Positions 1 to 58,507 of a stretch of DNA of 64,000 nucleotides are shown in pieces. The notes beneath the pieces were generated by a model, which was given only the letters and a program-made list of their open reading frames with translations, was not told the origin of the DNA and did no database searches. Made by a program: the position numbers and the translations under genes. The stretch is taken from positions 64,001 to 128,000 of the forward strand of contig JADJFV010000035.1 of the NCBI GenBank assembly GCA_016708435.1. The letters run 5' to 3'. This DNA is from Leptospiraceae bacterium (GTDB lineage: Bacteria; Spirochaetota; Leptospiria; Leptospirales; Leptospiraceae). Positions within the stretch are counted from its first letter, which is position 1, and every line of letters begins with the position of its first letter.

Positions 1-45
1 GATGTAAACTTAATCGTTCCATTTAGTTGTAAATCAAGACTTTGT

Positions 46-1160
46 TTGTCTTGCTATCGCAAGAAACTTTTTGGTTGGTCGGTTAATCTTTCTCATATAC
101 TAAACGTAGACTTGCGGCATATTCATGTTACCTTTACAATTCCTGGAACTGTATCTAATATTCTTCTTCAAAGAAGAGGCGAAGTCGAAGATATGATTTC
201 CGTAGCAGCAGAAGTTTACAAGAAAGAATTAATCAAATTCGCAAAACTGAAATTTAAGAAGGAAGAATTTACGATTAGCGACAAAGATTGGTTACCCCTG
301 TCACCTCGAACGGCTTCATCGTGAGAGGTCTATCTTGCTTAATACAACCGTTCTTTTGTCAGATAGATTTCTCACGCTCGAAGTTCCACCCGCTGTCGCC
401 GCTACCGCCAAGCGAGGTTCGAAATGACAGTTTAAATTTTAATCCTCATGTTCATCTCGTGGGGACTACGGCAATTATCCACAAAGAAACGAAAGAAGTT
501 TTGCATCTCTCGTTTTTAAGATACAAGAAATTTGCGTTCTCATGGATGAAAGCTTTTTGTAAACATTACGAAAAAGAAAAAGTCCTTACGAAAGCGGAAT
601 GTCTTGTTATCCAAAACAAATACAAAAATGGTTTTCATGTATATTTTCAGCCGATTGCAGGCGATGAGAAAGAACCATTATTTAGAACAGCGGAGTATAT
701 TGCATCAGGATTTTTTCACAATTCGCAAATTCAAAAAGTAGATGATGGTTCGGCAAGCTTGCCGAGGCAACCAACCGGATTAGCAACTGTTACCTTTCGA
801 TACAAGAGTTGGGTAGAGAAAGATACAAGAGAGAAAAGTTTTCAAGAACAAACAATTGATGTTTATGAATTCATGGCGCGGATGTTATTTTTTCTACCTG
901 AACCAAACCGAAAAATGATTCGTTATTATGGAATCTATGCAAACCGAATAAAAGAAAAGCTTGAGTTCATCGAACAACGAACTTGGGCTAAGGCTATTGA
1001 GAATAGTTTTGACGCAAAACCGCAAAACTGCCCAGACTGTTTTAAAAAGATGCAGCTAACCGTTGTTTATTCATATTCAGCTAGAAAAACGATTGAAGGA
1101 TTAAAAAAGACGCATACTTATTTGAACGGTTACTTTCGACCAAAGGCGCGAGCACCATGA
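46..1160 (+). pseudogene. IS91-family rolling-circle (HUH/Y2) transposase. The N-terminus runs off the window start. The gene is split into two frames by a 133-bp palindromic element inserted at 298-430.
   Basis: A Cys cluster at nt 1-60 (SCKSRLCLSCYRKK) looks like the Zn finger. Motif I is HVTFTIPG, the HUH motif is NPHVHLVGT, and the double-Tyr motif is RYYGIYANR. ORFs 46-324 and 288-1160 are in different frames. The first 48 codons of the second ORF are encoded by the inserted element. Confidence 0.6.
298..430 (+). repeat. Palindromic MITE-like element, copy 1. Its termini are CTGTCACCTCGAAC ... GTTCGAAATGACAG.
   Basis: It has 14-bp terminal inverted repeats plus an inner inverted pair, GTGAGAGGTCTATCT / AGATAGATTTCTCAC. 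Related copies lie at 23725-23858, 32661-32829 and 58407-58507. Confidence 0.75.
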
Positions 1161-1274
1161 TTAATGAGGAACTTTGAATACTAAATTTTGAATGAGATTG
1201 ACATTTTTTACAGCCAAGTTTTTCTTGGATACCAGAGGTATATCTTCACAATAGTCGGGCTTTTAAATTGAGGC

Positions 1275-1412
1275 AAAATTTTACCCCGTTTAGTTCATAA
1301 CACCTTATTATGAATGAAACACAATCCACTTTTGCTTTAAGCTTTTAACTTTGTAGGATAGAAGGAGATAGAATCATGGGAGAAGTTGGATGCAGATTAC
1401 TAGAAAGAGATA
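1275..1412 (+). repeat. Dispersed direct repeat of about 135 bp, copy A (AATTTTACCCCGTTTAGTTCA...GGATGCAGATTACTAGAAAGA)
   Basis: Near-identical copies occur at 3259-3392 and 4036-4158, and a partial copy at 6127-6160. All sit at gene-unit junctions. Confidence 0.8.
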
Positions 1413-1439
1413 ATAGTTTTTCCTGATATCTCTGAGTCA

Positions 1440-1649
1440 ATGTTGAGAGAAAGAGCAGAAATTGTAAGAAAGTCTATTGAAACTTTATCACTAACACATC
1501 AAGGAGAATCACTAGGAAAAATAACATTATCCGCAGGAGTTGCGATGTTTCCGATACATGGAGTAGACAATAATTCTATTATAGCCGCGGCAGATACAGC
1601 TTTATATAAAGCCAAACAAAATGGAAGAAATAGAGTCGAATTTGTATAG
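1440..1649 (+). pseudogene. C-terminal fragment of a GGDEF diguanylate cyclase (remnant)
   Basis: The 69 aa end in YKAKQNGRNRVEFV, the typical GGDEF C-terminus. Upstream domain parts are absent. The fragment starts immediately after repeat copy A. Confidence 0.6.
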
Positions 1650-1731
1650 AATATCTTTATGTTAGGTACACTCAAAGTGAAAGAGATTACAGTAAGAAAA
1701 AATATAACAAACAAAAAAGAGGAGTTTAAAT

Positions 1732-3220
1732 TTGCAGTTTATTGTAGATAATTTTGAATTAGTTACCTTTACTCTTTCTATCCTGGTAATTATTAGTATA
1801 TTTGCCAGTAAGTTTTCAATTCGCTTTGGTCTCCCTTCCTTACTTATTTTTTTAGTAATTGGAATGCTAGCTGGTTCTGATGGAATTGGAAGAATTTTTT
1901 TTGAAGATCATAAAATTTCTCAGATCATAGGAATTATCGCACTAGTGTATATATTATTTGCTGGAGGTCTCGAAACTAATTTACAAGAAACTACTCCTAT
2001 AATTAAAGATGGGCTAATACTTGCCAACCTTGGAGTTTTGTTAACTGCACTTCTAATGGCTTTTCTGGCGTATTATTATTTACATTTTAGTTTTTTAGAA
2101 GCATTTCTTTTAGGTTCGATTGTTTCTTCTACCGATGCGGCTTCTGTATTTGGTTTGCTTCGGACAACAGGGATAGGACTCAAGGGAAAATTAAAACCAC
2201 TTTTAGAATTTGAATCTGGAAGTAATGATACAGCCGCAGTAATTCTCACAACTACTTCCATTCAATTACTTTTGAATCCACAAATTAATTATTGGGGAGT
2301 TGCTCTTTCTGTAGTTTTACAAATTTCTATTGGAAGTCTCATGGGTTATTTCAGTGGGAGGCTAATCGCTATTTTACTCAATAGAATTGGACTAGAGCAT
2401 GAAGGATTGTATACAGTTCTTACGATCGCGTATATATACGCAGTTTATTCAGTCACAAATTTTTTACAGGGAAATGGGTTTCTTGCAGTGTATGTTTGCG
2501 GAATCATATTAGGAAATTCTAAATTTATCCACAAAAGAACTATCATCATGTTTGTAGATGGTCTTTCCTGGCTTATGCAGATTTTAATGTTTTTAACTCT
2601 TGGATTATTAGTTTATCCTTCTAGGCTTATTCCGATTATTATTCATGGAATGGTCTTTGCCTTTTTTTTTCTAACTTTTTGTTGCGAGACCCATTGCAGT
2701 ATTTCTTTGTTCAATAGGTTCCAAGTATACATTCAAAGATAAATTATTTCTTTCTTGGGTAGGACTTAGAGGGGCAACTCCCATTATCCTCGCTACGTTT
2801 CCTTTTACTAGTGGAATAGCACAATCTGAAACTATTTTTAACATTATTTTTTTTATTGTTCTTACTTCATTGCTTCTCCAAGGAAGTACGATTGTTAAGT
2901 CGGCTAACTTACTAGGACTTGCTTTAAAACAAAAAAAGGGCTCTCTCTATCCTTTTGAATTTGAAAACAGAGAAAATAGTCCAACTAAACTAGTAGAATT
3001 TATCGTACCCTATAATTCTGATGTAGCCAATAAACCTCTTGTAGGACTCAAAATTCCAGAAGGTTGTTTGATTACTCTTATTTGCCGAGGCGAGGAGTAT
3101 ATAATTCCCAATGGTAAAGCAATTTTACAAGGAGGAGATGTAATCTTAGTCCTTATGACAAATGATTCCGAGACCGAATTTGGAAAAATTTTATCTTCTC
3201 ACAATCCGATTCTAGATTAA
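1732..3220 (+). pseudogene. K+/H+ antiporter NhaP2/CvrA-type (CPA1 exchanger domain plus C-terminal TrkA-C), frameshifted
   Basis: Frame 1 (1732-2742) has about 10 TM helices and then reads ...FFFLTFCC. A shifted frame gives ARPIAVFLCSIGSKYTFKDKLFLSWVGLRG... and a TrkA-C-like C-terminus (ORF 2870-3220). Deleting one T from the T5 run at 2676-2680 restores a continuous protein (LTFVARPIAV). A T9 run lies at 2662-2670. Confidence 0.6.
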
Positions 3221-3258
3221 GATATTACTATTTCTCTGATTGAATCTGGTAACTTTGT

Positions 3259-3392
3259 AAATTTTACCCCGTTTAGTTCATTACACCTTATTATGAAAGA
3301 AACGAAAGTCCGATTTTGCTTTATGCTTTAGTTTTGTGGGATAGAAGGAAATAGAATTATCGAGAAGTTGGATGCAGATTACTAGAAAGAAA
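3259..3392 (+). repeat. 135-bp dispersed direct repeat, copy B
   Basis: It aligns with 1275-1412 over its full length. Confidence 0.8.
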
Positions 3393-3583
3393 GACTCATA
3401 TAGCCTACACCCAATTAGCCGCTTGGTTAATGGTTAATGAAATTTTATATAGCAAAGATTAATCAATGAGATGCAAATATCGCAAATTTTTCACTGTGCG
3501 CAAGTGCGTAATAACAGGAAAAAAATAATTGAGAGCAAATAGAATTTCTTGACATTGCCTGAATTCTAAACCAGAATAATTTT

Positions 3584-4006
3584 ATGAAGAAGAAATATAA
3601 ACTCAGTGCGATAAATACGAAAGAGGAAGCTATCGAAGAAGCCTATCGTTATTTGGAAAATGCAAAAGAGACACTGTCTAAAATTCCTATCGAAGACGGG
3701 ATTTATATGGATTCTAAATTTGTGCGCGAAGCATCGGGTATTGCGTATTTGGCGCCACTTCTTGCGATTGATGGCTATCTAATCGGGAAAGGAATTCCTA
3801 AAAATAAACTTCCAAAATCCACCGAGCATTACTGGGATGTCATTCCTAAAATTCCTTACAATGCAAAGCTTAGAAATAAATTTACTTCCGTCTATGAGAA
3901 CCTGCATCTCTTTGGTTATTACCGTGGTGGTGTAAATGTTGAAATGATTAAAGATGGAATGAAACACGCAAAAGAAATCGTTGATATGTTTAAAGATGCC
4001 GCTTGA
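3584..4006 (+). CDS. Hypothetical protein of 140 aa. It is a single-gene unit flanked by repeat copies B and C.
   Basis: This is a clean ORF. An AG-rich stretch lies upstream. No family was recognised with confidence. Confidence 0.5.
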   Translation: MKKKYKLSAINTKEEAIEEAYRYLENAKETLSKIPIEDGIYMDSKFVREASGIAYLAPLLAIDGYLIGKGIPKNKLPKSTEHYWDVIPKIPYNAKLRNKFTSVYENLHLFGYYRGGVNVEMIKDGMKHAKEIVDMFKDAA

Positions 4007-4035
4007 GTAATCTCTTTGGGTTAAACTAGACCTAT

Positions 4036-4158
4036 AAAATTTTACCCCGTTTCGTTCAAAGCAACTCTTTATGAATAAGGAGCAATCCGATTTTGCGTTA
4101 AGCTTTTAATTTGTGGGATAGAATTATAGGAGAAGTTGGATGCAAATTGCTAGAACAA
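4036..4158 (+). repeat. 135-bp dispersed direct repeat, copy C
   Basis: It aligns with copies A and B. The middle is divergent but both ends are conserved. Confidence 0.75.
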
Positions 4159-4185
4159 GAAGTTTACAGACCATTAGCCGCTTTA

Positions 4186-4368
4186 CTATTTGTAATTTTC
4201 AATGAAAATAATTGATTCTGCTGCGATAATTGGTTTCGACCAAAAATAGCCTTGTCCATAATCGCAATTTAATTCTTTAAGTTTTATTCTAATATGTTCT
4301 TCTTCTATTCCTTCTGCAACTGTTCGAATTCCCATACTAGATGCCATTTGAATGATTGCATTTACCAA
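4186..4368 (-). pseudogene. C-terminal fragment of an EAL phosphodiesterase domain (remnant)
   Basis: The 60 aa read ...GIRTVAEGIEEE...YGQGYFWSKPI. The rest of the domain is absent. It abuts repeat copy C. Confidence 0.55.
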
Positions 4369-4419
4369 TGATTTCGTCTAGGCGCTGTCCCTCAAGAGTG
4401 AAGAATATAGAAATACAAA

Positions 4420-6042
4420 TTAGGATTGAGTAAGATTTTGTGAATTTTTCTTCAATACATCTATCTGATCATGGAGAGCGGTAACTGAAAGAGAAAGATT
4501 TTCCGTAGAATGATTGATAGTCTCCATGGCTTTGTGAATTTCTTTGTTTCCATTTTTCTGCTCGGAAGCAATTTGACCTATTTGCTCCGAAAGAGTATAC
4601 AAATGATCGAAAGTTTCTTTCAGTTTAAGATTTACTTTTTTCTCAATGTCCACTTGCTCTTCCAATTCTCTGACATCTTTTTCAATTCGTCCAAGATCTG
4701 AATTTTGTTTTTCAACTTTGCTCCTGACTTCAACAGATAATAAATTGCCTTTTTCCATTTGAGCGGAAGATTCTTTTACGATTAAGTCAATTTCTCTGGC
4801 ATTTGTGGATGATTTTTCTGCCAATTTCCCTACTTCCTGAGCGACCACGGCAAATCCTTTTCCATTTTCACCGGCTCTTGCTGCTTCAATGGAAGCGTTG
4901 AGAGAAAGAAGACTGGTCTGGCGAGCAATTTCAGACATCATCTGGTTGATTTTAGTTACTCTCATAAATGATTCTTTTAATTCTACTAGTAATGAATTGA
5001 GTCTATCAGTAGAAATTTTTACTTCCATGCTGTATTTAGAACTGGTTTTAACATCTTTCGCAATCTGATCTGTTTTGCTTTTGACTGTGTTACTGATTTC
5101 ACTCAATTCATCAAAGTCCTGATCTACAATTTTAACTCTTTTGATTTGCTCCTCTACTAATTGAGCAGAGCTTTCAGAAGAGGCGGAGAGTTCTTCTATA
5201 GATGCTGAAATTTCTTCTACCGAGGCAGCTTGATTTTGGGATTGATTGCTCAATGTTCCAGACATTGTTTGAAGATTTGATATTGTATGGACAAGCTGAT
5301 TTGCAGATTCGGACATTCGTTTGGATTGTATTTGAATCATCTGCTGAGCCGAGACGGATAAGTCTAATTCATTTTTCAACTCTCTTTGCATTGAATTCAT
5401 AAGCGAGACTATAATGCTCAAGCAAAAAAGAATTGCCATTAAGAATAGAACTTTTTGGATTTCATTGGATATAACGATACTATTTGCCCATAGCATACCG
5501 GGATAAGAAGCCATTGTTGTCTTCGAGCCAAGAGATATGCTAAAAAAAAGGGAACCAACATATAGGATAATAACACCAAATCCGATGAACAGAAGGGATT
5601 TAGGTTTGAACAGGAATGAGGAATATATAATTATAAAAATAAATACAACATAATAGCTACTAGCATTAATTGCAATGCTCGCATCTCTCGAACTATAATT
5701 GTATATATCTATATAATAAACAAGACCAAGTAACAACAAATCTATAATCAGAATATTGTTCATCCACGAATCCGATATTTCTTTGCCTTGCTTTCGATAT
5801 ACGGAAGGAATAAATCCATTTAGAAAATAAATCAGAGTTCCCGCTAGATTGAAGAAAAAACTGACAGTTCCCCACTCGATCAAAGAGGAAATAAGCAAAA
5901 TGATACTCAAACCGTATTTTGTTTTTATCAGTAAAGAAACTCCTCGGTTAAGTTTTTGAGTATCTAAATTAGTCGATTGGTTAGCTTGCATGCAGATTTT
6001 CCTCCACCCGGTTTGCCAAATACAGCGATGCGATTCAAACAA
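4420..6042 (-). CDS. Methyl-accepting chemotaxis protein
   Basis: It has N-terminal TM segments and a C-terminal MA signalling domain ([37 protein letters not shown]). The start may be an internal Met near 5991. Confidence 0.8.
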
Positions 6043-6126
6043 TTACCCTCTTTAAAAAATTTAAATTCTAATACTTCAAGATAAATTAATAAGAACTATT
6101 GTGAGTCATTCATTTTTACAAATGAA

Positions 6127-6160
6127 AATTTTTACTCCGTTTAGTTTAAAACATCTCTCT
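6127..6160 (+). repeat. Partial copy D of the 135-bp repeat (5' ~35 bp only)
   Basis: AAATTTTTACTCCGTTTAGTTTAAAACA matches the 5' end of copies A-C. Confidence 0.5.
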
Positions 6161-6402
6161 TTAGCAACGAAAAAGCCTGTTGGCATCTCTGTCAATTATG
6201 AAGGCAGGGAAGAGCCAGGGGAGCAGTTATTCACGAATCCATTTAGGAGTCCCGCGGTCAGTAACGTCTGCCATTTCTCATTTCCATCATTAGGATGTTG
6301 CCAACCAACTATTTTGCAATTGCAAAGGGCGGCAATGAGTAAAATACCTTTCAAAAACCAAGTCATCGCTATCTTCTTCGAAATTCTCATCTAAATTATA
6401 CA

Positions 6403-6436
6403 TCTACACCACAAAAAAACTGCGAGGTGTTATATC
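6403..6436 (+). repeat. Junction repeat R1 (ACACCACAAAAAAACTGCGAGGTGT), copy 1
   Basis: The same 25-mer recurs at 7240-7262 and 8272-8296. Confidence 0.6.
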
Positions 6437-6578
6437 CCCAATGGCACCGACTGTGATGGTATCAGAGGAAATAGATACAGATGTTCCAAAATTATCATTT
6501 GCCTTTGCTTTGGCTCGTGTAAAAACAAAAAAAGTATTTCCTCTTGACAAAGAGCCAATTTCAAACAAAGTAAGGAGC

Positions 6579-7178
6579 ATGGACAACTTAGCGCGTAAAC
6601 TTTTCACCGAAGAAGAATACTTAGAAATAGAAAGACAGGCAACCGATAAAAGTGAATATTACAAGGGAGAAATCTTCGCTATGGCAGGAGCGAAGCGAAA
6701 GCACAATCTCTTAGTCACAAATCTATGCAGGGAGATCAGTTCCATCCTCAAGAACAATCCCTGCGAAGTCTATCCTTCTAATATGAGAGTAAAAAACAAG
6801 ACAGATAGATTTTATACCTATCCCGATGTAACCATCGTTTGTGGAAAGCCGGAATTCTTGGATGACGACGAAGATGTCCTTACAAATCCAACTGTTATTA
6901 TAGAAGTTTTATCTACTTCTACCGAGAAATACGACAGGGGAGGAAAATTTGCTCTCTATCGAAATATACCTTCCGTTCAAGAATACATTTTGGTAGGCTC
7001 CGAAGAAAAGAAAATAGAGTCCTTCTTTCGCAAAGGAGATGAATGGATTTTTCGGGAATCTAAAAACGAATCTTCATATCACTTCCGCTTACAATCTTTG
7101 GATATAGAACTTTCCTTAGATGACATTTATGAAAAAGTAGAACTACCTCCCAAAAGATTGCGAGAGAATTTTTTATAG
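6579..7178 (+). CDS. Uma2-family (DUF820) putative restriction-endonuclease-like protein
   Basis: Motifs are [25 protein letters not shown] and [38 protein letters not shown]. The ORF track starts at 6441. An internal Met at 6579 gives the typical ~200 aa length. Confidence 0.65.
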
Positions 7179-7179
7179 T

Positions 7180-7262
7180 CAGGAACGCACATTGAAGAAG
7201 CTATCCTTTGCTCTCCGCCAATTTCGCGCATAATTCAAATACCCCACAAAAAAACTACGAAG
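7180..7262 (+). repeat. Junction repeat: a shared 55-bp segment (CAGGAACGCACATTGAAGAAGCTATCC...ATTTCGCGCATAA) plus an R1-like 25-mer
   Basis: The 55-bp segment recurs at 9129-9183, where it encodes the C-terminus of the PIN protein. Confidence 0.7.
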
Positions 7263-7332
7263 CTTTTTAAGCTGTCTCTACCCTCTTTTTTCTCTTTACA
7301 ATTTAGAATAAGTGGAATGAGATAGAGAAACG

Positions 7333-8223
7333 ATGATTGCGAACTTAGACAACGAAGTATTTTTCAAGAAAGCATTTACGGATACGTTTGTATTGAAGCA
7401 TTTTGTAAAAGATGTTTTGGAAATGGACTTGGACTTTGACAAAGTAGAAACCGAAAAATCTTTCGATCCAAGGATTGGGAATATTGATTTTAAATATGAT
7501 ATTTTTGCAGAGTCTACGGACAAGCGGGTAATCATCGAAATCCAGAAAGTGGATTACGATTACAACTTCGATCGGTTTCTGCATTATTTTTTAATGGCAA
7601 TCGCTGAGCTTCAACGCAGTTCCAAAGACTATGGCATTGAAAAAACTGTATACGCAGTTATATTTATCACAGCTCCCTACAAGATAAATCAAAAGACTGG
7701 AATCCCCATCAAAGATGAACTTTTGATTTCTAACTTGAATCCGAAGAACATCAAGGGCGATGAATTAAATATCTATGGTCATAGTCTGTTATTTTTAAAT
7801 CCGAATTACAAAAATGCTGAAATCCCAGCGCGTATCCGAGATTGGTTGGATTTAGTTTACGAGTCCATGCACAATCCCGAAAAACCGAGCATCAACCAAA
7901 ACAACGACGGAATCAAACGAGCTTCTGAAATTCTAGACTTTGAACATATATCTCCTTCTGAATGGGAACAAAGCAAAATCCGTGAAGGCAGAAAGAAAGT
8001 GCAGCTAATAGCAAAAGAAGAAGGCGTTGAAGAAGGGAAAATTATCGGTAGAGAAGAAGGAATTAACATTGGTGTTGAGAAAGAAAGAGAGCGTTCTGAA
8101 AAAGAAAAAGAGGATGCAATCAGAAAAGCAATTTCTAAACAAAAGCTTTCCTTAGAAGAAATAGCAGAGGTCTTTGGCGTATCAGTGGAATTTGTGCAGC
8201 ATTTGCCCAAGGGCGTGGATTAA
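7333..8223 (+). CDS. Rpn/YhgA-like PD-(D/E)XK nuclease family protein (putative transposase/invertase-type, TIGR01784-like)
   Basis: The N-terminus has FFKKAF...DIFAESTDKRVIIEIQK (D..E.K nuclease core). The C-terminal region is Glu/Lys-rich and coiled. Confidence 0.55.
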   Translation: MIANLDNEVFFKKAFTDTFVLKHFVKDVLEMDLDFDKVETEKSFDPRIGNIDFKYDIFAESTDKRVIIEIQKVDYDYNFDRFLHYFLMAIAELQRSSKDYGIEKTVYAVIFITAPYKINQKTGIPIKDELLISNLNPKNIKGDELNIYGHSLLFLNPNYKNAEIPARIRDWLDLVYESMHNPEKPSINQNNDGIKRASEILDFEHISPSEWEQSKIREGRKKVQLIAKEEGVEEGKIIGREEGINIGVEKERERSEKEKEDAIRKAISKQKLSLEEIAEVFGVSVEFVQHLPKGVD

Positions 8224-8310
8224 CCCACGCCCTTGGGCAAATACGAATAATTGGGCACGCCTAACACCAATACACCACAAAAAAACTGCGAGGTGTGATA
8301 CTCGCAGTTT
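8202..8310 (+). repeat. Junction: a perfect 17-bp inverted repeat spanning the Rpn stop codon, followed by the R2 repeat (CCACGCCCTTGGG...GGGCACGCCTAACA) and then R1 with its own hairpin
   Basis: TTTGCCCAAGGGCGTGG (8202-8218) pairs with CCACGCCCTTGGGCAAA (8225-8241). R2 recurs at 9192-9235. AAACTGCGAG/CTCGCAGTTT forms a hairpin at 8283-8310. Confidence 0.7.
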
Positions 8311-8481
8311 AGAAAGTGATTGGTTATAGTGTGAAAGTTTATTGAATCTTTCGGATTTTGAGGTTGCAGTTATCAGAGAAATAGAGGCGCTGATGCCTTG
8401 CAAGTAAAGCGAACAAAGTGACAGTTGAAATTTTTAGAGACAAAAATCAGTTGATCTTTTCTAGATAGTCAATATTATACT

Positions 8482-8691
8482 TTGATAGGAGAATGTATGA
8501 CAGAAATTACAGTCAAAGTTCCGAATAACTTATTGAGCATTGCACAGAAACTTGTTGCAGACGGCTGGTTCTTGGATGAAAATGAAATTTTTCTATTGGC
8601 ATTTAGAAATTATTTAAGGACTCATTCAGATGAAATTATCACATCTTTCATTAAGGAGGATATTGAATGGGGTCTGAATGGTAAAGAATGA
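8482..8691 (+). CDS. Small antitoxin-like protein (UPF0175-like partner of the downstream PIN gene)
   Basis: The 69-aa ORF overlaps the downstream PIN-like gene start by 14 bp. This is typical antitoxin-toxin architecture. Confidence 0.45.
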   Translation: MIGECMTEITVKVPNNLLSIAQKLVADGWFLDENEIFLLAFRNYLRTHSDEIITSFIKEDIEWGLNGKE

Positions 8692-9181
8692 ATGGATTGT
8701 CGTTTGTGATGCAGGTCCAATTATTCATTTAGATGAATTAAACTGTTTAGATATACTGGATTTCCAAAAGATCTTGGTTCCTATAACTGTTTGGGAAGAA
8801 ATATTACAATACAGGCGCATTCCTTTGGAAAAAATCAAAGGGCTTGAAATCATCGAAAGAACTGATTTTACTACAGAGTTTTTAGAAATATGTAAATTAT
8901 ATGACCTGCATAAAGGAGAGGCTGCCGCTATTTTCTTATCGCTAGAATTGAAGAACTCTATATTGTTTACGGATGATGGGGCTGCGCGGTTATATGCCAA
9001 AAGTAAAAATATTGCTGTTCACGGAACAATCGGGATTCTGCTTCGAGCAGTCAGAAAAAATATCCGAAGCCCAGACAATATTATAGAAATTCTAAAAAAT
9101 ATAAAAACAAATTCTACACTTCATATTTCAGGAACGCTCATTGAAGAAGCTATCCTTGCTATCCGACAAATTCGCGCATAA
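8678..9181 (+). CDS. PIN-like nucleic-acid-binding protein (COG2405/DUF3368 type), putative toxin
   Basis: The N-terminus VVCDAGPIIHLDELNCLDIL matches DUF3368 PIN-like proteins. The protein is 167 aa. Confidence 0.55.
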   Translation: MVKNEWIVVCDAGPIIHLDELNCLDILDFQKILVPITVWEEILQYRRIPLEKIKGLEIIERTDFTTEFLEICKLYDLHKGEAAAIFLSLELKNSILFTDDGAARLYAKSKNIAVHGTIGILLRAVRKNIRSPDNIIEILKNIKTNSTLHISGTLIEEAILAIRQIRA

Positions 9182-9240
9182 CACCATTACCCCACGCCCT
9201 TGGGAAAATCAGAATAAGTGGGCACGCCTAACATCAATAC
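9129..9240 (+). repeat. Junction: a copy of the 55-bp segment that overlaps the PIN CDS 3' end, plus an R2 copy
   Basis: Compare with 7180-7233 and 8225-8278. Confidence 0.7.
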
Positions 9241-9483
9241 ATACAGATTGACTTTTAATAGATAATTCCTTTAGCGAATGAAATCTAGGACAGGAGATTC
9301 CCCCCTATAAAACTCTACAAGCACACAAACAGCCCTCCCCCATTTTGGGATAATCTACAAAACCTATCAATATAGGACAAATATGAATTTGTTGTTTACG
9401 AATTTTAGTAGGATGAATTTCTTCTGAAGCACTGGAATGTGTTCACGGGAATAAGAGTTTTTGTCGTAGGTGAGATTATAAAA

Positions 9484-9523
9484 TCTTTATCCATAAAAAC
9501 GACCTATTTTTATGGATAAAGAT
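9484..9523 (-). terminator. Perfect 16-bp stem-loop (TCTTTATCCATAAAAA / TTTTTATGGATAAAGA), a likely bidirectional terminator downstream of the LamG gene
   Basis: The inverted repeat is visible directly. The stem is AT-rich and sits 20 bp past the stop of the minus-strand gene. Confidence 0.4.
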
Positions 9524-9543
9524 TGTAAGGTGTATAGAATTTC

Positions 9544-10682
9544 TTAGTTTGAATTGGCTCCAGAAGAAATCCAATTGGCATCAGTCATGTTTTGAAGTGT
9601 GCCATTGAAACTACCTTTTTCATCAATTAGGGTTGTTCCACTAGTTGAATCAAATTTATAATAAGCAATTAAATTTGATTCTCCGGTTGGATTGCTTAAA
9701 GGAGTGTTTCTATTATTTTGGATTTCTGCTTGTGTTCTTGCCACTTTCCAGATGCGTAGATCATCCATTTTTCCTTTATAGAAAAAACCGGAAGAGGTTG
9801 GTGGATTACTACCAGGTTGTGCACCTAAAGTAACAGGACCTAAAGTGGCACTAGTTGTAGTGTCTACAGTACCAGTAATCGCACCTGCAATAAGAGTTCC
9901 ATTTTTATATACTTTGAGTCTATCTGCAGCGGCTAGCGTACCATCAAAAACTACAGCTATATGCGTCCACGTGGAAAGTGTAATACTAGCTGCTCCAGTA
10001 CCCCTGTAACCAGGCTGTGTATTATTTTGAAAAACGTTCAGCCCCGTACCCGAAAGTTCAATGTCGATTTTTGGAATGTCGCTAGTTACTTTGGTACCCA
10101 AAATAGTTACTCCAGACTCAATCAATACCCACATTTCAATTGTATAAGCAGATGCACCTCTAAGATCTGGAATCGTTCCAATAGTAACATGTTGTTTTAA
10201 AGCAACAGCACCAAACTCAAGGGCATTTCCAAACCCAAGTGTTACACATGCAATAGATATGTTAGTCACATTCGCAGTTGCCGTCCCTGTTCCACTTGAA
10301 ACCGTGCAGGTTAATCCAGTTGGTTGCGTTTTCACTGTCACAGCATAAGCCGCTGTTTTCGTTGCAAACGTGAACGTTGTCGCACCACTGGCTACAGTCA
10401 AATCGTCTCCTGCATTGTTCTGAAGCACAAGCCCAGTTGCAGTAAGTCCTGTGATTGTTCCACCGATTGCATAAGTTGCTGCCGCTCCAGTTCCAGTTCT
10501 GTAGCTGTAGCCGTCGCCACTGTTCCACTTCCTCTAGAAGCGAGTGCCGCCGCTGCGAATAGAGGTGTTTTATCATCCTCTTTTTTATTACAATTTATAA
10601 ACGTCAAAGTAGTTGCTAGGGCAATTACTGTGAGGCATTCTATCCATAGACTAAGTTCTTTTTTATTGGTTTTATTTTCCAT
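9544..10682 (-). pseudogene. LamG/concanavalin-A-like lectin-domain lipoprotein, apparently frameshifted
   Basis: The N-terminal ORF (10398-10682) has a signal peptide and a lipobox (TFINC). The body ORF (9544-10428) is Gly/Thr-rich LamG-like (DDLRIWKVARTQAEI). The two frames differ. The in-frame stop of the body frame is at 10534-10536. A GCTACA x2 tandem lies at the junction. Confidence 0.5.
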
Positions 10683-12758: not shown

Positions 12759-14816
12759 ATGAAACAAATCAAAAATAAAGAATATCGTAAAAAAAAGAAT
12801 GTTATGGAAATCACGATTAGCCGCATTCTACAAACGGCAACGCTACTATTCTTTATTCTAGCCAGTATTGTATTTCAAGCCTGCACTAGCGAAAAAAAGA
12901 TTTTTCCAAAAGCAGAGAAAGGTATTCTTGATTTGCGATCTGCATCCATTGATTCCGAAATAAGTTTAGATGGAGAATGGGAATTTTATCTCTTTACGTT
13001 TATTGATCCAACAAATCCAAACTTAAACCCAGAAAAACAATTCATCCAAGTCCCTGGAATTTGGAATCAGGCAATGAAACAGGGAAAGGGTTATGCAAGT
13101 TATAGACTCCAAGTCTTGTTACCCGATACAAATTCTATTCCTCTCGCTTTTAAGGTTATGGAGAACGGGACTGCCTATAAAATGTTTGTCAACGGAATAG
13201 AAGTAGCGGCTAACGGGCAAATAGGAAAGACAAAGGAAGAAAATATCGCAGAGCATTTGCCACTTGTTGTCCCACTAAAAAACTATTCCCCAAAAATAGA
13301 AATTGTATTTCATGTGTCAAATTTTCATTATACGGATGGAGGACTTTGGTATTCAATTCAGTTGGGAGAGGATTCCAAAATCAGAAAAGCAAAAGAAAAC
13401 AAAATGCTTCTCACATTGTTTTTATGTGGAAGCATTTCAATCATGGCAATTTATCATATTGCCGTTTATCTTTTTAGAAGAAAGGATAAGTCTGCTTTAG
13501 CTTTTAGTCTTTTTTGTATCGCGATAGATTTTAGGCTTCTTGGATTCAATGAAAAGTTTTTGAATCAAATTTTTGTGGGAGATTATTTTCTAATTCTAAA
13601 TCGGATTGAATACCTGGCTTATTATTTGGCGATTCCGTTCTTTGCTAGCTTTCAGCAAATTATTTTTCCAAATGAATTTAGAAAAATATTCTTACATTTT
13701 TTTTTGATTATCTCTTCTTTATTTTCTTTAGTGGTTCTTTTGTTTGATAGTTTTATTTATACACATACAGCCTTTTACTATCATATCTATGTTCTTTTTT
13801 TTATGGGCTATTCAACGTTTGTAATGATAAAAGCAGTAACCAATAATAGAGATGGATCTAAAATTTTTACCTTTGGAATGTTTCTTCTTTTTGCTGTAAC
13901 AATAAATGATATTCTTCATTCTAAGACAATTATTCAAACAGAATTTATGGCTCCCTATGGAATGTTTGGATTTATTTTTATTCAATCCATAATGCTTTCG
14001 ATGAGATTCTCAAAGGGATTTAACATGGCAGAAAAATTAAGTCACGAACTTATACTACTCAATGCAAGTCTTGAAGATAAAATTTTAGAGCGAACAAAAG
14101 AATTAACCAAAAAAAAAGAAATAGCAGAAGAAGCAAGTCTCATCAAAGATAAATTTGTTTCGATTGTATCGCATGACTTGCGATCTCCGCTCTTAGGTGT
14201 ATCGAATATACTTGAAATCATTGACAAAAAAGAAATCGTTACAACCGAAGAAGAAAGAAAACAATTTTTAGAAATGTCTCGCGAGAGTATTAAATTTTCT
14301 TTGAAAATGATAAATGAATTATTAAACTTAAGTCGTATTGAAACCGGCAAAATCAAAGTTAAAAAACAGAATATTTCCGTGCAAGAAATGACTAAATTAT
14401 TTCTAAAAGAATTGGAACCGCAAGCTAAATTAAAAAATATTACAATCAAAACCGAAATTCCATCTCTCCTTTCTATCTATATTGATTTGGAGTTATTTCC
14501 TCAAGTCTTAAAAAATTTGATTACCAATGCAATTAAGTTTACTGAGCCGGAAGGAAATATTTTGATCCGAGGAATCGCGAGCGAAAAAGAATCAATCATT
14601 GAAATTCATGATAACGGCGTTGGGATGAGCGCCGATGAACTCAATCAAATCTTTGAGCCCGGTGCCAAAAAGACAAGGCTTGGAACTTCTGGTGAAATTG
14701 GAAGTGGAATGGGATTATTTATTTGTAAATACATTGTAGATGCACACGGTGGAAAAATCCAATTCATAAGCGAAGAAGGGGTTGGAACAATTTGTAAAAT
14801 TATTTTACCGATATAG
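12759..14816 (+). CDS. Sensor histidine kinase with a 7TMR-DISM extracellular domain, 7TM region, HisKA and HATPase_c
   Basis: It has a signal/TM segment, an extracellular ~180 aa domain (WEFYLF...HYTDGGLW), then 7 TM helices. H-box is SIVSHDLRSPL. G-boxes are HDNGVGM and GSGMGL. Confidence 0.8.
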   Translation: MKQIKNKEYRKKKNVMEITISRILQTATLLFFILASIVFQACTSEKKIFPKAEKGILDLRSASIDSEISLDGEWEFYLFTFIDPTNPNLNPEKQFIQVPGIWNQAMKQGKGYASYRLQVLLPDTNSIPLAFKVMENGTAYKMFVNGIEVAANGQIGKTKEENIAEHLPLVVPLKNYSPKIEIVFHVSNFHYTDGGLWYSIQLGEDSKIRKAKENKMLLTLFLCGSISIMAIYHIAVYLFRRKDKSALAFSLFCIAIDFRLLGFNEKFLNQIFVGDYFLILNRIEYLAYYLAIPFFASFQQIIFPNEFRKIFLHFFLIISSLFSLVVLLFDSFIYTHTAFYYHIYVLFFMGYSTFVMIKAVTNNRDGSKIFTFGMFLLFAVTINDILHSKTIIQTEFMAPYGMFGFIFIQSIMLSMRFSKGFNMAEKLSHELILLNASLEDKILERTKELTKKKEIAEEASLIKDKFVSIVSHDLRSPLLGVSNILEIIDKKEIVTTEEERKQFLEMSRESIKFSLKMINELLNLSRIETGKIKVKKQNISVQEMTKLFLKELEPQAKLKNITIKTEIPSLLSIYIDLELFPQVLKNLITNAIKFTEPEGNILIRGIASEKESIIEIHDNGVGMSADELNQIFEPGAKKTRLGTSGEIGSGMGLFICKYIVDAHGGKIQFISEEGVGTICKIILPI

Positions 14817-15506: not shown

Positions 15507-15717
15507 TAAACAAATTGTGCGAAAAAATTTAATTCTTGTTAAGGATAGGTAAGGCATTTATAGTTATGAGCTTTTCGGCTTTCGGATTGAAATTAGCAAA
15601 ACTGAAATAAAAGCTAGGAATAGCGTAGATAGAAAAAGAATTACTTGAAATTATTGGGATAGCTTTTATTATTTCCGGCATTCATGAAAAGGTAGCTTGA
15701 GCGCGAGGAGCAAAAAA

Positions 15718-18129
15718 ATGAAACGGGAAACCTTAGATAAAAAAATACCGACCTTATTTATCGTAATCTTTTTTACATTTTGCAATCTAGGGAACCATAA
15801 TACAAAAGAAGAAAATGAATCCTTGTTCACAAATTTGGGATTACTGTTTAGCAGAGCCAATCGACTTACTGTATCAGGCTCTGCAGTAAAAGGAATTGTT
15901 AAAAATGGAAAAGTGTCAATTAGCACCGTAGAAAAAGATGGAAGTTGTAATTCCTCTCAGAGTCTTGCCACTGGAACTACAGACATAACTGGACTCTATT
16001 CTATTTATTATAACAAAGTAGGGGGAATGATTTGTATTACTATTTCCGGCGATCAAAATACTACCATGTATGATGAGAAATCTGGAAAAGACTTACCGGT
16101 TCCATCTACTTCTGATTTTAAACTGGTTTCTATTCTTCCTGAAAGTAAATTTTCTAGTAATTCAAAAAAGAACGCTCTCATCTCTCCCTTTTCAAAATTA
16201 TTATCCAAAAGAATGGAAACCTTAATTAAGCAGGCAGGAGAAGGGGCAGATGTATCGGCACTTTACAAAAAGGCAAGCAAAGAAGTAGTCATCCGATTCG
16301 GTTTAAGTTCTGGTCTTTCAAGTGCTTCGCAAAAAAACAAACGACTTCTAGAAATCAGACCCAGTATTTTAGATTCAGATTATCCAGAATTGGATGATCT
16401 TGTAATAGAACTAGACAACCCGAATAGCCCTATCTCTGCTAAATATCTTTCTGTGCTGGCAGGTTTTTCACAACTGGCAAATTCTTACAAAAAAGAAACG
16501 GAAGTTAAAGTAACAGATGTAGATTCAGTAATAAACGCATTTGCTTCTGATTTTGAGGATGGAGTTTTTGACGGAAAAAATGGTTCGGGCAGTACAGTTA
16601 CATTGGGGGCTGGTCAAAGGCAACTAACGTTTTCTTCCAATCCTCTTACTACTATTTTGCTACCCGCGATTTCCACTTATCTGCAAGAAGGAGGAAATTT
16701 GAGCGTAGGTGTGCCAGGAACAGCAACATCTACAATCACGATAACTCAATTCACAAATCAAACTCAGTTTAATGACAATAGCCCAATCATATCTACTACA
16801 ACAACTACTACACCTACCACCACGCCAACCCCTACGCCTGTGGTAACTCCGATAACTCTCAGCATAACAGCATTTAGTTTTACGGATACTGTAAACGGTT
16901 TAAGCAAAACCTATAACGGCATAATAACTGGAAGCAATATTACAATCGATATACCCTATGGAAAGCTTACGTCCGCGATTCCTTCTATTACTACAAATGC
17001 TACTACCATCATGGCTCCTTCTGCTGTAACAAGCGGAGTAACTTTGTTAGACTTTACAAACCCTGTCACACTTACTCTAAGTGCTGCCAATGCGGCTAAT
17101 GTAGTGTATACCGTTACAGCGTATCCGATAACGCCTGTAGCAGATACAGGTCAGACGATTTGTTTTAACAATGCAACCCCTCAAGGATCTTGCGCTACTA
17201 CAACGGCCACCTTCCCAAATCAGGATGGAGAACTTTTAAATTTTCCAAATGCAAAAGGAACACAAGCTATTTCGACTAACCCCGGTTACCCAAATGATCA
17301 AATCAATCAAGATACTTTAAAAGGTATCGTTTGGAAAACATGCCACGAAGGTCAAACAGGACCAACTTGTGCTGGAGGAACAGCTTCTACCAATAATCAT
17401 GCATCAGCTACTACGCTATGTGGTAATTTGAATTCAGCAAATTCTGGAGCAGGCTATGCTGGATTAAAAAATTGGAGATTGCCGAATGTTTATGAATTGA
17501 ACCAATTATTGGAACTTAACGGTAGCACGACGAATAACAACTATTGGAATGCAACTTTTTTCCCAAATGCACCAGCAGGAGGTTTAAGCAGATGGACTTC
17601 TTCATTAATATTGCCAGCGGCTACTAGTGCTATGACCCAAACTACTGAATACATTCAAAACCAGGCTACTTCCACTCCCAATTATGTTCAATGCGTGAGT
17701 GGACCCGCTTCTCCCGCTTTTGATATGGTTGATAATGGAGATGGAACAATTTTTGATAAAAGAACTAAATTGATTTGGCAAAGATGTGCTTTTGGACAAA
17801 CTAATGATGCTACCTGTTCAGGTGCTCTCGCAACTAAAACCTGGACTAATTCATTGTTAGATTGTAAGAATTTAACTTTAGCAGGAAAGTCTTGGAGACT
17901 TCCCAATGCGAATGAATTTTTGACTCTAGTGGATTTGTCTATTACCACTGTTCCAAAAGTGAATCCTACTCTTTTTCCTAATTTTGGTGTTGCAAATTAT
18001 GAGACTAGTTCAACCAATCAAAATAATCTTGCCTATTCCCATATTTTTGATACCAATGCTACTGGCTTTTATGGATGGTCAGGGAAAGGAAGTGTTTACA
18101 ATTCCCGTTGCGTGGCTGGTCCTGAATAA
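15718..18129 (+). CDS. Large lipoprotein with an N-terminal conserved module, a Thr/Pro linker, and C-terminal 2x DUF1566 (Lcl C-terminal-like) repeats
   Basis: The lipobox is FTFCN. The linker is TTTTTPTTTPTPTP. Two DUF1566-like repeats are NWRLPNVYELNQLLEL and SWRLPNANEFLTLVDL. The first ~350 aa are ~70% identical to ORF 35091-37646. Confidence 0.7.
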   Translation: MKRETLDKKIPTLFIVIFFTFCNLGNHNTKEENESLFTNLGLLFSRANRLTVSGSAVKGIVKNGKVSISTVEKDGSCNSSQSLATGTTDITGLYSIYYNKVGGMICITISGDQNTTMYDEKSGKDLPVPSTSDFKLVSILPESKFSSNSKKNALISPFSKLLSKRMETLIKQAGEGADVSALYKKASKEVVIRFGLSSGLSSASQKNKRLLEIRPSILDSDYPELDDLVIELDNPNSPISAKYLSVLAGFSQLANSYKKETEVKVTDVDSVINAFASDFEDGVFDGKNGSGSTVTLGAGQRQLTFSSNPLTTILLPAISTYLQEGGNLSVGVPGTATSTITITQFTNQTQFNDNSPIISTTTTTTPTTTPTPTPVVTPITLSITAFSFTDTVNGLSKTYNGIITGSNITIDIPYGKLTSAIPSITTNATTIMAPSAVTSGVTLLDFTNPVTLTLSAANAANVVYTVTAYPITPVADTGQTICFNNATPQGSCATTTATFPNQDGELLNFPNAKGTQAISTNPGYPNDQINQDTLKGIVWKTCHEGQTGPTCAGGTASTNNHASATTLCGNLNSANSGAGYAGLKNWRLPNVYELNQLLELNGSTTNNNYWNATFFPNAPAGGLSRWTSSLILPAATSAMTQTTEYIQNQATSTPNYVQCVSGPASPAFDMVDNGDGTIFDKRTKLIWQRCAFGQTNDATCSGALATKTWTNSLLDCKNLTLAGKSWRLPNANEFLTLVDLSITTVPKVNPTLFPNFGVANYETSSTNQNNLAYSHIFDTNATGFYGWSGKGSVYNSRCVAGPE

Positions 18130-20147: not shown

Positions 20148-20543
20148 TCAACTCATCTCTTGCTCTAATATCTTTCTGAATTCACTAGGAATAGAAAGCT
20201 TTGTATCAAGCCGATAGTCGTAATAGACTTGCACAGTCTTTGCTTTTGCATAGATAATTTTTGTTTTTGGGTTAATAATATTTGCCGCAAAGTCCCAGGA
20301 AGTAGTTCCAACTCTTGAAACCCATGTGTGCACATCTGCTTCTTCCCCCGGCCGTAGTGAATTTAAAATATCTAGCTCTACTCTGACTAGAACAAAAGGA
20401 ATATCCTGTAAAGTCTTGATAGAAATATATTTTTTGCAAAAGTCTAATCTTCCAAGTTCTAAGTAAGAACTGTATACAGAGTTATTGACTCTCTGCATTG
20501 GATCCATATCACTAAATCGAATTTGTATTGGTGTAATTATCAT
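20148..20543 (-). CDS. Acyl-CoA thioesterase, hotdog fold (YbgC/4HBT-like)
   Basis: 131 aa. The N-terminal IRFSDMDPMQRVNNSVYSSY is typical of 4HBT thioesterases. Confidence 0.65.
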   Translation of the reverse strand: MIITPIQIRFSDMDPMQRVNNSVYSSYLELGRLDFCKKYISIKTLQDIPFVLVRVELDILNSLRPGEEADVHTWVSRVGTTSWDFAANIINPKTKIIYAKAKTVQVYYDYRLDTKLSIPSEFRKILEQEMS

Positions 20544-21577
20544 ACGAAGTAAATTCTGTTCCGTCCATTTTCTTTGGCTTTGTATAAGAGTTCATCGGAG
20601 CGTTTGAGCATAGTATCAGGTGAGTCTTGATCGGATAATGACGTGAAGCCTCCAGAAGTAGTTACTTGCCAGGGAACTCCACTGAAACTATGCGCCTCAA
20701 TTACTAAATCATTTGCCCGAACGGTTGATTGTATAATCTTTGCAATTTCTTTAAGCACATCATCTCCAGTCAAATGCCCTAGAGTGTCATTTATTTTTTT
20801 GAAATAATCTACATCCATGATTCCCTGACAGAATGGTTGTGATTTTTTTCTTGCGAGTAAAATATGGTGCACGAGTAAATCCATCATATAACGACGATTA
20901 AACACACCTGTCAATGGGTCTTTGACTGAGATGCTTTCTAAGATTGTGTTTTTTCTTCTGAGTTCTTCTTCTAAGTGAAATGTCTTTCGCCTTGCGTATT
21001 CGATTGTCAGAGTAGTCATAAATCCAACAAAGGAATACAAAAATATTTTTGTAATTGTAAGTCCATTTATTTTATCCATATGAAGTGTTGCCAAACACAG
21101 AGTAAACCCAATAACAATAAATAAATAAATGATTGCATAAAAAAGAATGCGAGTTCTAAGGATAAGAGGAATCGACATAGCTACAAAGGCAAACAACGAT
21201 AAGTCCTCTCCATGAAATAGATTTAGAATATTGATTGATAAAGCGCCAATGATAAAAATCGTAAAATACAATAAATAGATAAAGTGAACTTTCTTATGTT
21301 TTACATTTAGAAAATAAAATAGAATGGAAAATAATACAGTGGTTACAAGCAAACAACCATATACCGCTACATAGATTGAATAAGAAAAAGATTGTCTATC
21401 CACACTCGGATAAAAAATATGCTGCAATAAGAAGCTTAAGGATGCAATAAATACAACACCGGCAAATCGAGGAAAACGATTCCAATTTTTCATCGCATTG
21501 AACACGATGTATTTATCTCTCTGGATTCCTCCCAACTGAGACATTCTTCGCCTGTATGTATTTAGTAAGTATTTCAT
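20540..21577 (-). CDS. Membrane-anchored GGDEF-domain protein with a degenerate active site
   Basis: It has 6-7 N-terminal TM helices. The GGDEF fold markers are present (GVFNRRYM, GHLTGDDVLKEIA, ELLYKAKENGRNRIYFV). The GG(D/E)EF position reads HSFSG. Confidence 0.7.
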   Translation of the reverse strand: MKYLLNTYRRRMSQLGGIQRDKYIVFNAMKNWNRFPRFAGVVFIASLSFLLQHIFYPSVDRQSFSYSIYVAVYGCLLVTTVLFSILFYFLNVKHKKVHFIYLLYFTIFIIGALSINILNLFHGEDLSLFAFVAMSIPLILRTRILFYAIIYLFIVIGFTLCLATLHMDKINGLTITKIFLYSFVGFMTTLTIEYARRKTFHLEEELRRKNTILESISVKDPLTGVFNRRYMMDLLVHHILLARKKSQPFCQGIMDVDYFKKINDTLGHLTGDDVLKEIAKIIQSTVRANDLVIEAHSFSGVPWQVTTSGGFTSLSDQDSPDTMLKRSDELLYKAKENGRNRIYFV

Positions 21578-23698: not shown

Positions 23699-23891
23699 CA
23701 ATGCTGTCAACTTAAGAATTGTTTCTGTCATTTCGAACATCGCTTGGCGGTAGGATTTGCGGCTAAGCAAATGGGTGGATGTGAGAAATCTATATGGCAA
23801 TACAACGATAGTATTAAGCTAGATAGACCTCTCACGATGAAGCAGTTCGAGGTGACAGGAGAAAAGCACTTTCCTTAAGTTGACAGCATTG
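23699..23891. repeat. Palindromic MITE-like element copy 2 (23725-23858, reverse orientation), nested within an outer 18-bp inverted repeat, CAATGCTGTCAACTTAAG / CTTAAGTTGACAGCATTG
   Basis: The termini are CTGTCATTTCGAAC ... GTTCGAGGTGACAG. The outer inverted repeat is perfect. Confidence 0.7.
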
Positions 23892-32660: not shown

Positions 32661-32829
32661 CTGTCACCTCGAATAGCTTCACCATGAGAGGTCTATCTTG
32701 CTTACCCTCGCTGCGAAGTTATAAACGCCTTTGTATACTATCCTATCGTTTCATTGCCAGATAGATTTCTCACATCCAGCCATTTGCTTAGTAGCAAATA
32801 CAACCGCTAAGCGATGTTCGAAATGACTG
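32661..32829 (+). repeat. Palindromic MITE-like element copy 3
   Basis: The termini are CTGTCACCTCGAAT ... GTTCGAAATGACTG. The inner inverted pair is GAGAGGTCTATCT / AGATAGATTTCTCAC. Confidence 0.75.
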
Positions 32830-34828: not shown

Positions 34829-35090
34829 CCGATTTCTTTCCATTTTAACTAGGTGCTCTGAGTGAGTGCCTGGTTAAATGCCGGACAATTCGCAGTATTC
34901 GCCTATAGGTATATCTCCATGGAGAGTTACGCCGGACAAGAATTTGAATACTTTTCCAATTTTAGAATCTTAAGGAGGTCGATAGCCTGAATTTAAACTA
35001 CTAAAAAAAGAATTTGCTTGAAATTATTAGGATAACATTTACAATTCTCCGCATTAATGAAAATGAGTTTAGAGAGCAGGGAATAAAAAA

Positions 35091-58406: not shown

Positions 58407-58507
58407 CTGTCATTTCGAACTGCCTTACCGTGAGAAATCTATCTGCCTTAATGCAATAGTTCTAAGAGAGATAGACCTCTCACGAAGAAGCATGTTCGAG
58501 GTGACTG
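58407..58507 (-). repeat. Palindromic MITE-like element copy 4 (shortest, 101 bp)
   Basis: The termini are CTGTCATTTCGAAC ... GTTCGAGGTGACTG. The inner pair is GTGAGAAATCTATCT / AGATAGACCTCTCAC. Confidence 0.7.

Follow-up and report, generated by a model that had tools for sequence, protein, structure and literature searches.

Co-oriented, putative oriIS-type repeats behind an IS91-family transposase gene bound strain-variable blocks with truncated genes in Leptospiraceae

In a 64,000-nt stretch of a Leptospiraceae genome (assembly GCA_016708435.1, contig JADJFV010000035.1, positions 64,001 to 128,000 of the forward strand; hereafter the window, with positions counted from its first letter), the 3′ ends of two signalling genes, one for a GGDEF diguanylate cyclase and one for an EAL phosphodiesterase, lie beside copies of a direct repeat of about 130 bp. 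This raises the question of whether such repeats are passive spacers, or the ends of a mobile element at which genes were cut. The repeats were found to form an array behind a transposase gene of the IS91 family, and the reading we favour, which we hold to be reasonably probable, is that the array consists of products of rolling-circle capture and that each of these has at its boundary a solo copy of oriIS, the end at which elements of the IS91/ISCR family start their transposition. A preliminary description of the locus had proposed that both genes ended at the repeats. Its general idea is borne out, and so is the break of the GGDEF gene at a repeat, but the EAL gene is broken elsewhere.

The transposase gene and its repeat units

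The left end of the window is occupied by a plus-strand transposase gene (1–1160; Pfam Y2_Tnp, E = 5e-15) that runs past the window end. In L001 (GCA_016718635.1), a Leptospiraceae-type metagenome-assembled genome with 99.1% identity to the window, Zn_Tnp_IS91 was found on the upstream half of the gene. Intact relatives are 410–422 aa long, and both the HUH motif (PHVH) and the RYYGxY motif are invariant in 17 relatives. The two domains, the HUH motif and the catalytic tyrosines assign the gene to the IS91-family HUH-Y2 transposases, the window copy being a pseudogene. It is split at 298–430, with about 35 bp of coding sequence missing relative to the genes of loci L007–L011, and relatives align only to window positions 1–297 and 429–1408.

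Three direct repeat copies were found at about 1275–1408, 3259–3390 and 4036–4160, all of them on the plus strand. Unit A (1275–1408) begins 115 bp past the transposase stop codon. Unit B (3259–3390) is a mosaic, with its left part like one unit type and its right part like another, while unit C (4036–4160) is internally 11 bp shorter. The array ends with the partial unit D (6125–6172), which consists of the left part only and was delimited by nhmmer matches to the repeat profile together with alignment. The nhmmer profile, built from A, B and C, detected nothing beyond A–D in the 64-kb window, and all four copies have the same orientation.

In IS91 and ISCR elements, oriIS lies downstream of the transposase gene and is the place where transposition starts (PMC13181058, PMC13023784). 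The published oriIS terminus of ISCR1 is GTGGTTTATACTTCCTATACCC, ending …ACTTCCTATACCC (PMC13023784), and that of ISCR27 is GCGGTTGAACTTCCTATACC, located 236 bp past the transposase stop codon (PMC8894482). The right ends of the units described here resemble the ISCR oriIS terminus TTCCTATAC, most clearly in the related lineages L022, L016 and L041. The units that follow related transposase genes terminate with …TTGAATTTCCTATGTATC in L022, …CAGATTCCTATATATT in L016, …AAGTTCCTATGTGG in L041 and …ATTCCTAGAAAGT in L069, and in the window the consensus of unit A ends at 1408 with …CTAGAAAGA, the unit terminus being …GATTACTAGAAAGA. From this position and these sequences, we read the unit as the putative oriIS-type end of the IS91-like element, diverged in the window lineage. 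The oriIS position and the terminal motif of related lineages thus speak for the repeats as mobile-element ends. Insertion of IS91 takes place beside a target tetranucleotide, in the form of a single-stranded circle (PMC13181058); the bases past the unit ends are A-rich, with no fixed tetranucleotide among them.

Several other identities of the unit were considered and rejected. A structured RNA or an attC-like site was dismissed, as folding was not better than that of shuffled sequence and covariation was not seen. Rfam gave no match over the whole window at gathering thresholds and a permissive E-value search of 1–6500 returned nothing relevant. There are no tRNA genes in the window, and a promoter and terminator scan of 1100–6400 found nothing tied to the units. 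A short peptide could be read inside the unit from an ATG at 1376, but conservation of this start codon does not extend to copy B or the L003 copies. The unit does not qualify as a miniature inverted-repeat transposable element (MITE), since its ends are not mutual inverted repeats and no dispersal of its copies is seen beyond the array that follows the transposase gene. Finally, a model of two half-sites, with a fixed crossover at the centre and the left and right halves of the unit assigned to the upstream and the downstream block, respectively, was dropped because the oriIS-like motif lies at the right end and not in the centre. Partial copies of both kinds exist, and some of their junctions resemble slippage at microhomology.

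Gene remnants, strain-variable blocks and recurrence in Spirochaetota

The co-oriented units split the region into unrelated blocks, comprising a GGDEF remnant with an NhaP-type antiporter gene between A and B, a DUF5618 gene between B and C, and an EAL remnant with a chemotaxis gene beyond C; unit A would be the element's own end, and B, C and the partial D solo ends without a transposase gene. For both gene fragments, breaks were mapped by translation across stop codons, writing an X for each stop (padded translation), followed by a Pfam scan. The fragments are real as previously delimited: the open reading frame (ORF) 1440–1649 (plus strand, 69 aa) matches positions 98–161 of 161 of Pfam GGDEF and ORF 4186–4368 (minus strand, 60 aa) positions 191–236 of 236 of Pfam EAL. 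Only C-terminal profile positions were matched, the rest of the domain missing from both.

On the padded translation, the 3′ remnant of the diguanylate cyclase gene extends over 1410–1649 (plus strand; GGDEF positions 85–161 of 161). The first homologous codon is 1410–1412 ('IIVFPD'), at Pfam position 85 and just past the place of the GGDEF motif, and the alignment with DosC begins directly after the GGDEF motif of that protein. The remnant is devoid of the GGDEF motif and of everything N-terminal to it, so a complete catalytic domain is absent. The in-frame stop upstream (1401–1403) falls inside repeat A, and the break coincides within 2 bp with the right edge of the unit, whose consensus ends at 1408; the start of the fragment was misplaced when it was put about 30 bp past the repeat. 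The remaining part of the gene was not found upstream of the element, and it is therefore more likely that the fragment arrived already truncated within a captured segment. A homolog search revealed no close full-length relative; its matches were limited to this very 69-aa fragment and two further short ones. The paralog at 20540–21577, proposed as a close relative, aligns with only 29% identity and is uninformative.

The same block carries a gene for an NhaP-type Na+/H+ antiporter with a TrkA_C domain (1732–3220, plus strand; Pfam Na_H_Exchanger and TrkA_C). In a metagenome scan that used NhaP to look for a GGDEF–NhaP donor, only relatives with 41–50% identity were obtained, with no matching GGDEF gene upstream. 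In the window, an insertion of 4 bp (TCTA) at about 2670 (2668–2676), with substitutions nearby, shifts the reading frame of the gene, while the gene of L001 is intact (491 aa); the frameshift marks either a recent pseudogene or an assembly error.

The EAL remnant presents a different picture. On the padded translation, it covers 4186 to about 4395 on the minus strand (EAL positions 179–236 of 236), with homology extending from the stop codon 4186–4188 through an in-frame TAG (4378–4380) up to about 4395; here, too, a complete catalytic domain is absent, and an in-frame stop is present. The end facing unit C does lie near the repeat, 25 bp from the unit edge, but it is the natural stop codon and is unbroken. 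The broken 5′ end is located about 25 bp from the stop codon (4420–4422) of a gene for a methyl-accepting chemotaxis protein (MCP), with no repeat copy at the junction. This MCP gene (4420–6042, minus strand; Pfam MCPsignal) belongs to the same block, is apparently intact and was called at 523 aa in L001, L003 and L006, where the EAL–MCP junction is also present. The EAL gene may have been cut by a separate, earlier event beside the MCP gene, and then carried in with its block. When homology breaks are set against the repeat boundaries, the expected agreement is thus obtained for GGDEF, within 2 bp of A, and not for EAL, where there is no repeat. Accordingly, the suggestion that recombination at the repeats broke pre-existing genes can be retained only for the GGDEF gene, as a cut at a repeat that need not have been made in place; the EAL gene was broken at another point.

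The DUF5618 gene (3584–4006, plus strand; Pfam DUF5618, E = 7e-31) is the sole gene between units B and C. An identical protein is encoded in L002–L006 with other neighbours, and across loci its neighbour takes three different forms on the left and three on the right. Just right of unit B lies a TGGTTAA microsatellite (3424–3437), with two copies in the window and seven in the 99%-identical L001.

The window, which is AT-rich, was compared at this locus with L001, L002, L012 and L003/L006, making five assemblies whose strains are nearly identical or closely related. They share the transposase gene, unit A and/or the flanks, while the DNA between the units differs. The shared left side consists of RuvB, a 319-aa gene, the transposase gene and unit A, and the shared right side runs from an AAA-ATPase/PDDEXK_9 gene and a histidine kinase gene onwards. 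Homology between the window and L002 stops at 1406–1408, the right edge of A. L012 shares the left flank of L001 and has 98% identity to window positions 1–1416, including a MITE-like element inside the transposase gene, with homology stopping at 1416. In comparison with L003/L006, homology begins exactly at 3259, the left edge of B. Such breaks at unit edges argue for the repeats as mobile-element ends or recombination junctions, and against passive spacers. The L003 copy of B is a mosaic whose left part is like another L003 unit and whose right part is like B, and a patch of five substitutions inside B separates two 99%-identical strains. Exchange between units, by homologous recombination or gene conversion, therefore acts here too.

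The layout recurs in many genomes of Spirochaetota. A scan of one genome per species by transposase alignment yielded 80 loci, nearly all of them in this phylum, including Leptospiraceae, Turneriella and the cultured Leptospira soteropolitanensis, L. yanagawae, L. vanthielii and L. kemamanensis. The transposase gene is followed, in many loci at a distance of about 110–140 bp, by the first unit and then by one to about ten further direct copies of the ~130-bp unit, with up to about ten further copies in 10 kb in L022 and spacings of 0.2–4 kb. Twenty loci have a full transposase gene flanked by 5 kb or more to either side. Ten of them carry direct copies in the first 5 kb downstream (20 copies in total), only one has an upstream copy, and a single inverted copy was seen. 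The units have base-pair-sharp ends, and are 97–100% identical within an array, a figure that falls to about 80% when two paralogous arrays from a single genome are compared. Many contigs end just past the transposase gene, as is expected for a repeat. L. soteropolitanensis and L. yanagawae have the same transposase gene and first unit, as well as the same last unit and right flank, with different blocks between them.

Further 5′-truncated genes adjoin the same unit edge at other loci, in agreement with the idea of mobile ends. In L012, a P-type ATPase gene is cut flush at the unit's right end (Hydrolase positions 74–191 of 191, with an open frame up to the unit), and its DNA has 26% GC while the neighbouring DNA has 38–41%. 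In L041 (L. soteropolitanensis), an MCP gene is cut flush at the unit, with MCPsignal positions 34–164 of 172 matched from residue 2. In L022, two internal gene fragments are likewise cut flush at the right ends of units: one of cheA fills block 13193–13820 exactly, and one of a PNP_UDP_1 phosphorylase gene (profile positions 69–162 of 233) lies in a 360-bp block. Another block of L022 consists of the last ~30 bp of a transposase gene, the spacer and a unit, which would look like a rolling-circle product that ended prematurely inside the element. Moreover, head-to-tail tandem units and duplicated right termini occur in L041, L047, L011 and L002, and point to repeated insertion at the right edge of the unit.

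In regard to the content of blocks at other loci, the 26% GC stretch of L012 (3718–6004), which adjoins unit A, holds the C-terminal part of the P-type ATPase, a CcoS-like protein and a small c-type cytochrome. Its source looks like a different, low-GC organism, with the reservation that this is a short contig binned to Saprospirales, in which a chimeric assembly is possible. An array block of Turneriella (L042, 18100–18966) contains what is apparently an intact gene for an rRNA adenine dimethylase (Pfam RrnaAD, positions 7–262 of 263), of the family that includes the Erm and KsgA methyltransferases.

A capture mechanism and its alternatives

The steps that we infer for the capture process, namely nicking, circle formation, insertion and array growth, would be as follows. 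The HUH-Y2 transposase would nick at the right edge of an oriIS, and displacement of the bottom strand would run leftwards until it ends at the next identical nick site or, by one-ended transposition, at an arbitrary point. The resulting circle, consisting of captured DNA and one oriIS, could then re-insert at the nick site beside a resident oriIS, and homologous recombination between units would afterwards delete and shuffle blocks. In IS91, termination at terIS fails in 1–10% of events, whereby adjacent DNA is mobilised (PMC13181058), and ISCR elements lack terIS (PMC13023784). As the left end of a block may fall inside a gene, such a mechanism could explain the flush cut of the GGDEF gene at unit A. 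It would also account for blocks with several genes or fragments in either orientation, for the foreign DNA of L012, and for the strict orientation and position of the arrays.

Several observations weigh against this explanation. At the window locus, the transposase gene is a pseudogene in every sampled strain, so the recent strain differences could be due to recombination only; homologous recombination alone could explain them, and mosaic units with variable crossovers fit such an origin. The terminal motif of the window lineage has diverged, being ATTACTAGAAAGA instead of TTCCTATAC, and the oriIS assignment at this locus therefore rests on position and on homology with relatives. Single-strand folding of the unit is not significantly better than that of shuffled sequence in most lineages, a significant hairpin being found only in L069 and L041 among the related lineages. 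Comparison of independent loci revealed neither terIS nor another conserved left end upstream of the transposase gene, as homology between such loci begins 28–72 bp before the start of the gene, or inside it. The missing terIS matches the ISCR elements rather than IS91 proper, as far as these sequence comparisons go. A donor locus with a full-length GGDEF gene beside NhaP was found neither by the homolog search nor by the metagenome scan. Furthermore, a gene is not cut at every junction: only 46% of unit right ends fall in open frames compared with 78% of random positions, so that random cutting would be too simple an account of the junctions. One-ended transposition of canonical IS91 takes up DNA at the terIS side, upstream of the gene. 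Unlike in canonical IS91, the blocks described here lie downstream of oriIS, so that solo copies of oriIS are needed, and how the first of them comes to lie beside new DNA is left unexplained by the model.

Alternatively, the 135-bp unit itself could be a small non-autonomous element that hops locally into native DNA beyond the transposase gene, with homologous recombination between units deleting what lies between them so that genes end at unit edges, in which case the blocks would not be mobile at all. We regard this scenario as rather unlikely, although much of the above is compatible with it, including the sharp and constant ends on both sides of the unit, the mosaic units with variable crossovers and the conversion patches between 99%-identical strains, the differences between strains in spite of a transposase that is dead at the locus, the near absence of blocks common to different arrays, and the tandem units, which show that a unit can insert alone. 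An element of this kind would, on the other hand, be expected in dispersed positions, yet none was found elsewhere in the 64-kb window, and the 20 loci counted above contain one upstream copy against 20 downstream copies. It should also leave the other part of an interrupted gene across the unit, whereas the block after the cheA fragment of L022, the one case examined, has no ORF of at least 60 aa able to continue the gene. DNA of 26% GC right at the edge of unit A in L012, in a region of 38–41% GC, is likewise difficult to explain by insertion into native DNA, and the two Leptospira species with the same flanks and wholly different blocks would require a large common ancestral array.

The co-orientation of ~130-bp repeats with strain-variable blocks between them, the toxin-antitoxin-like and DUF genes nearby, and a unit motif, GTTGGAT, that fits the attC core pattern GTTRRRY could also suggest an integron-type array without an integrase (CALIN), in which the repeats are attC sites and a tyrosine integrase is encoded elsewhere. 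This origin is nevertheless highly improbable. Among the called genes within 10 kb in L001–L006 there is no gene of the Phage_integrase type or for IntI, the units lack the long imperfect hairpin of attC (DNA folding z-scores of −0.63 to +0.49, both strands) and their consensus fold shows no compensatory changes; a block may comprise several genes, in both orientations, and internal fragments of genes occur too, and the array always stands behind an IS91-family transposase gene. Equally little credence can be given to chance or to contigs mis-joined at the repeat, by which the fragments would only seem to adjoin the units. It is true that many contigs break just past the transposase gene and that the L012 contig is a short one from Nanopore sequencing, assigned to the bin of an unrelated taxon. 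However, the A–GGDEF and EAL–MCP junctions recur in independent assemblies from NCBI, JGI and ENA, and contigs as long as hundreds of kb to 2.3 Mb, as well as genomes of isolates, contain arrays too.

Neighbouring features, known systems and implications

Other repeats and variable genes accompany the array. The segment that splits the transposase gene, 298–430, corresponds to a MITE-like element of 133 bp with 14-bp terminal inverted repeats (CTGTCAyyTCGAAC), which is absent from the transposase genes of L007–L011. It has an internal 15-bp palindrome, CGTGAGAGGTCTATCT…AGATAGAtttCTCACG. Further MITE-like copies are located at 32661–32790 and 58407–58500, and a lone arm at 23821–23836; the motif has seven matches, compared with 0.17 expected by chance. 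Inverted pairs of a 25-nt motif, GCCACAGAGnCACnGAGGCACAGAG, were found in intergenic positions (20009/20139, 25137/25338 and 31824/31959), 100–200 bp apart, giving six matches against 0 expected, and look like a second family of small elements with inverted-repeat ends. A 300-nt direct repeat with 76% identity (15633–15932 and 35006–35305) covers the starts of ORFs 15697–18129 and 35091–37646, which are apparently paralogous genes; in related loci, the product of ORF 15697–18129 carries Lcl_C.

To the right of the array, 6179–10430 forms a second strain-variable stretch, with Uma2, PDDEXK_2, a DUF3368 pair and a Laminin_G-like gene. Its short repeats (6395, 7230 and 8261; 8219/9186; 7208/9156) include a terminator-like palindrome, ACTGCGAG…CTCGCAGT, and after Uma2 (7179–7235) the 3′ end of the DUF3368 gene is present once more, as a 54-bp copy. 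Strains vary here by deletions and duplications between these short repeats. At the border itself, 6179–6434 is the 5′ remnant of a minus-strand gene that encodes 702 aa (Beta_helix) in L004 and 257 aa in L002/L005, and the right border of the array cuts into this gene to a varying extent between strains.

The array can be compared with several known systems. ISCR1, ISCR2 and ISCR27 are alike in having an IS91-family HUH-Y2 transposase, an oriIS about 100–250 bp downstream with a terminus of the TTCCTATAC type and no recognisable terIS, and in the foreign, often truncated DNA that adjoins the oriIS edge. However, each ISCR oriIS comes with a transposase gene, the repeats there being whole ISCR copies, whereas here one transposase gene is followed by up to about ten solo units of ~130 bp (L022), each bounding a different block, and the hosts are chromosomes of Spirochaetota instead of resistance plasmids. 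IS91, IS801 and IS1294 share the rolling-circle start at oriIS and the termination failure that mobilises adjacent DNA of arbitrary length, which would cut genes at the far end; they differ in their defined terIS and in capture upstream of the transposase gene, and to our knowledge no solo-oriIS arrays have been described for them. Full-text literature searches likewise found no description of such arrays.

Sedentary chromosomal integrons have a platform gene at one end, co-oriented repeats of ~130 bp that are highly similar within an array, and strain-variable blocks, all of which are seen here as well. Nevertheless, the present system has neither a tyrosine integrase nor an attC hairpin, and its blocks are not single promoterless genes but combine several genes of either orientation, fragments of genes and non-coding pieces. 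The eukaryotic Helitrons also use an HUH-Y2 nuclease and gather host gene fragments through imprecise termination. They differ in having a helicase domain, in capture at the 3′ terminator end and in being dispersed, while the bacterial system lacks the helicase domain and has one array per transposase gene.

It is also conceivable that the array of capture products belongs to a wider gene-capture platform of Spirochaetota, integron-like in its organization and driven by an IS91/ISCR HUH-Y2 transposase. Solo oriIS copies would act in it as both start and stop signals of rolling-circle excision, and a block with its oriIS would be an independently mobile cassette that inserts beside a resident oriIS, building up strain-variable arrays that take in foreign DNA and gene fragments. 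We put this forward tentatively, as a possibility that may well not hold in full.

The pick-up of neighbouring genes by ISCR and IS91 elements, including many resistance genes, is still largely a model. The arrays offer one transposase gene together with several solo origin ends that go with captured segments differing from end to end, and their junctions are sharp to the base pair. HUH enzymes are already used for DNA–protein tagging and genome writing. If the blocks are mobile, the arrays would represent a second, mechanistically unrelated way to build integron-like cassette arrays, as well as a bacterial counterpart of the gene-fragment capture known from Helitrons. Such a process, if true, would explain a hypervariable island in Leptospiraceae, including the cultured saprophytic Leptospira.

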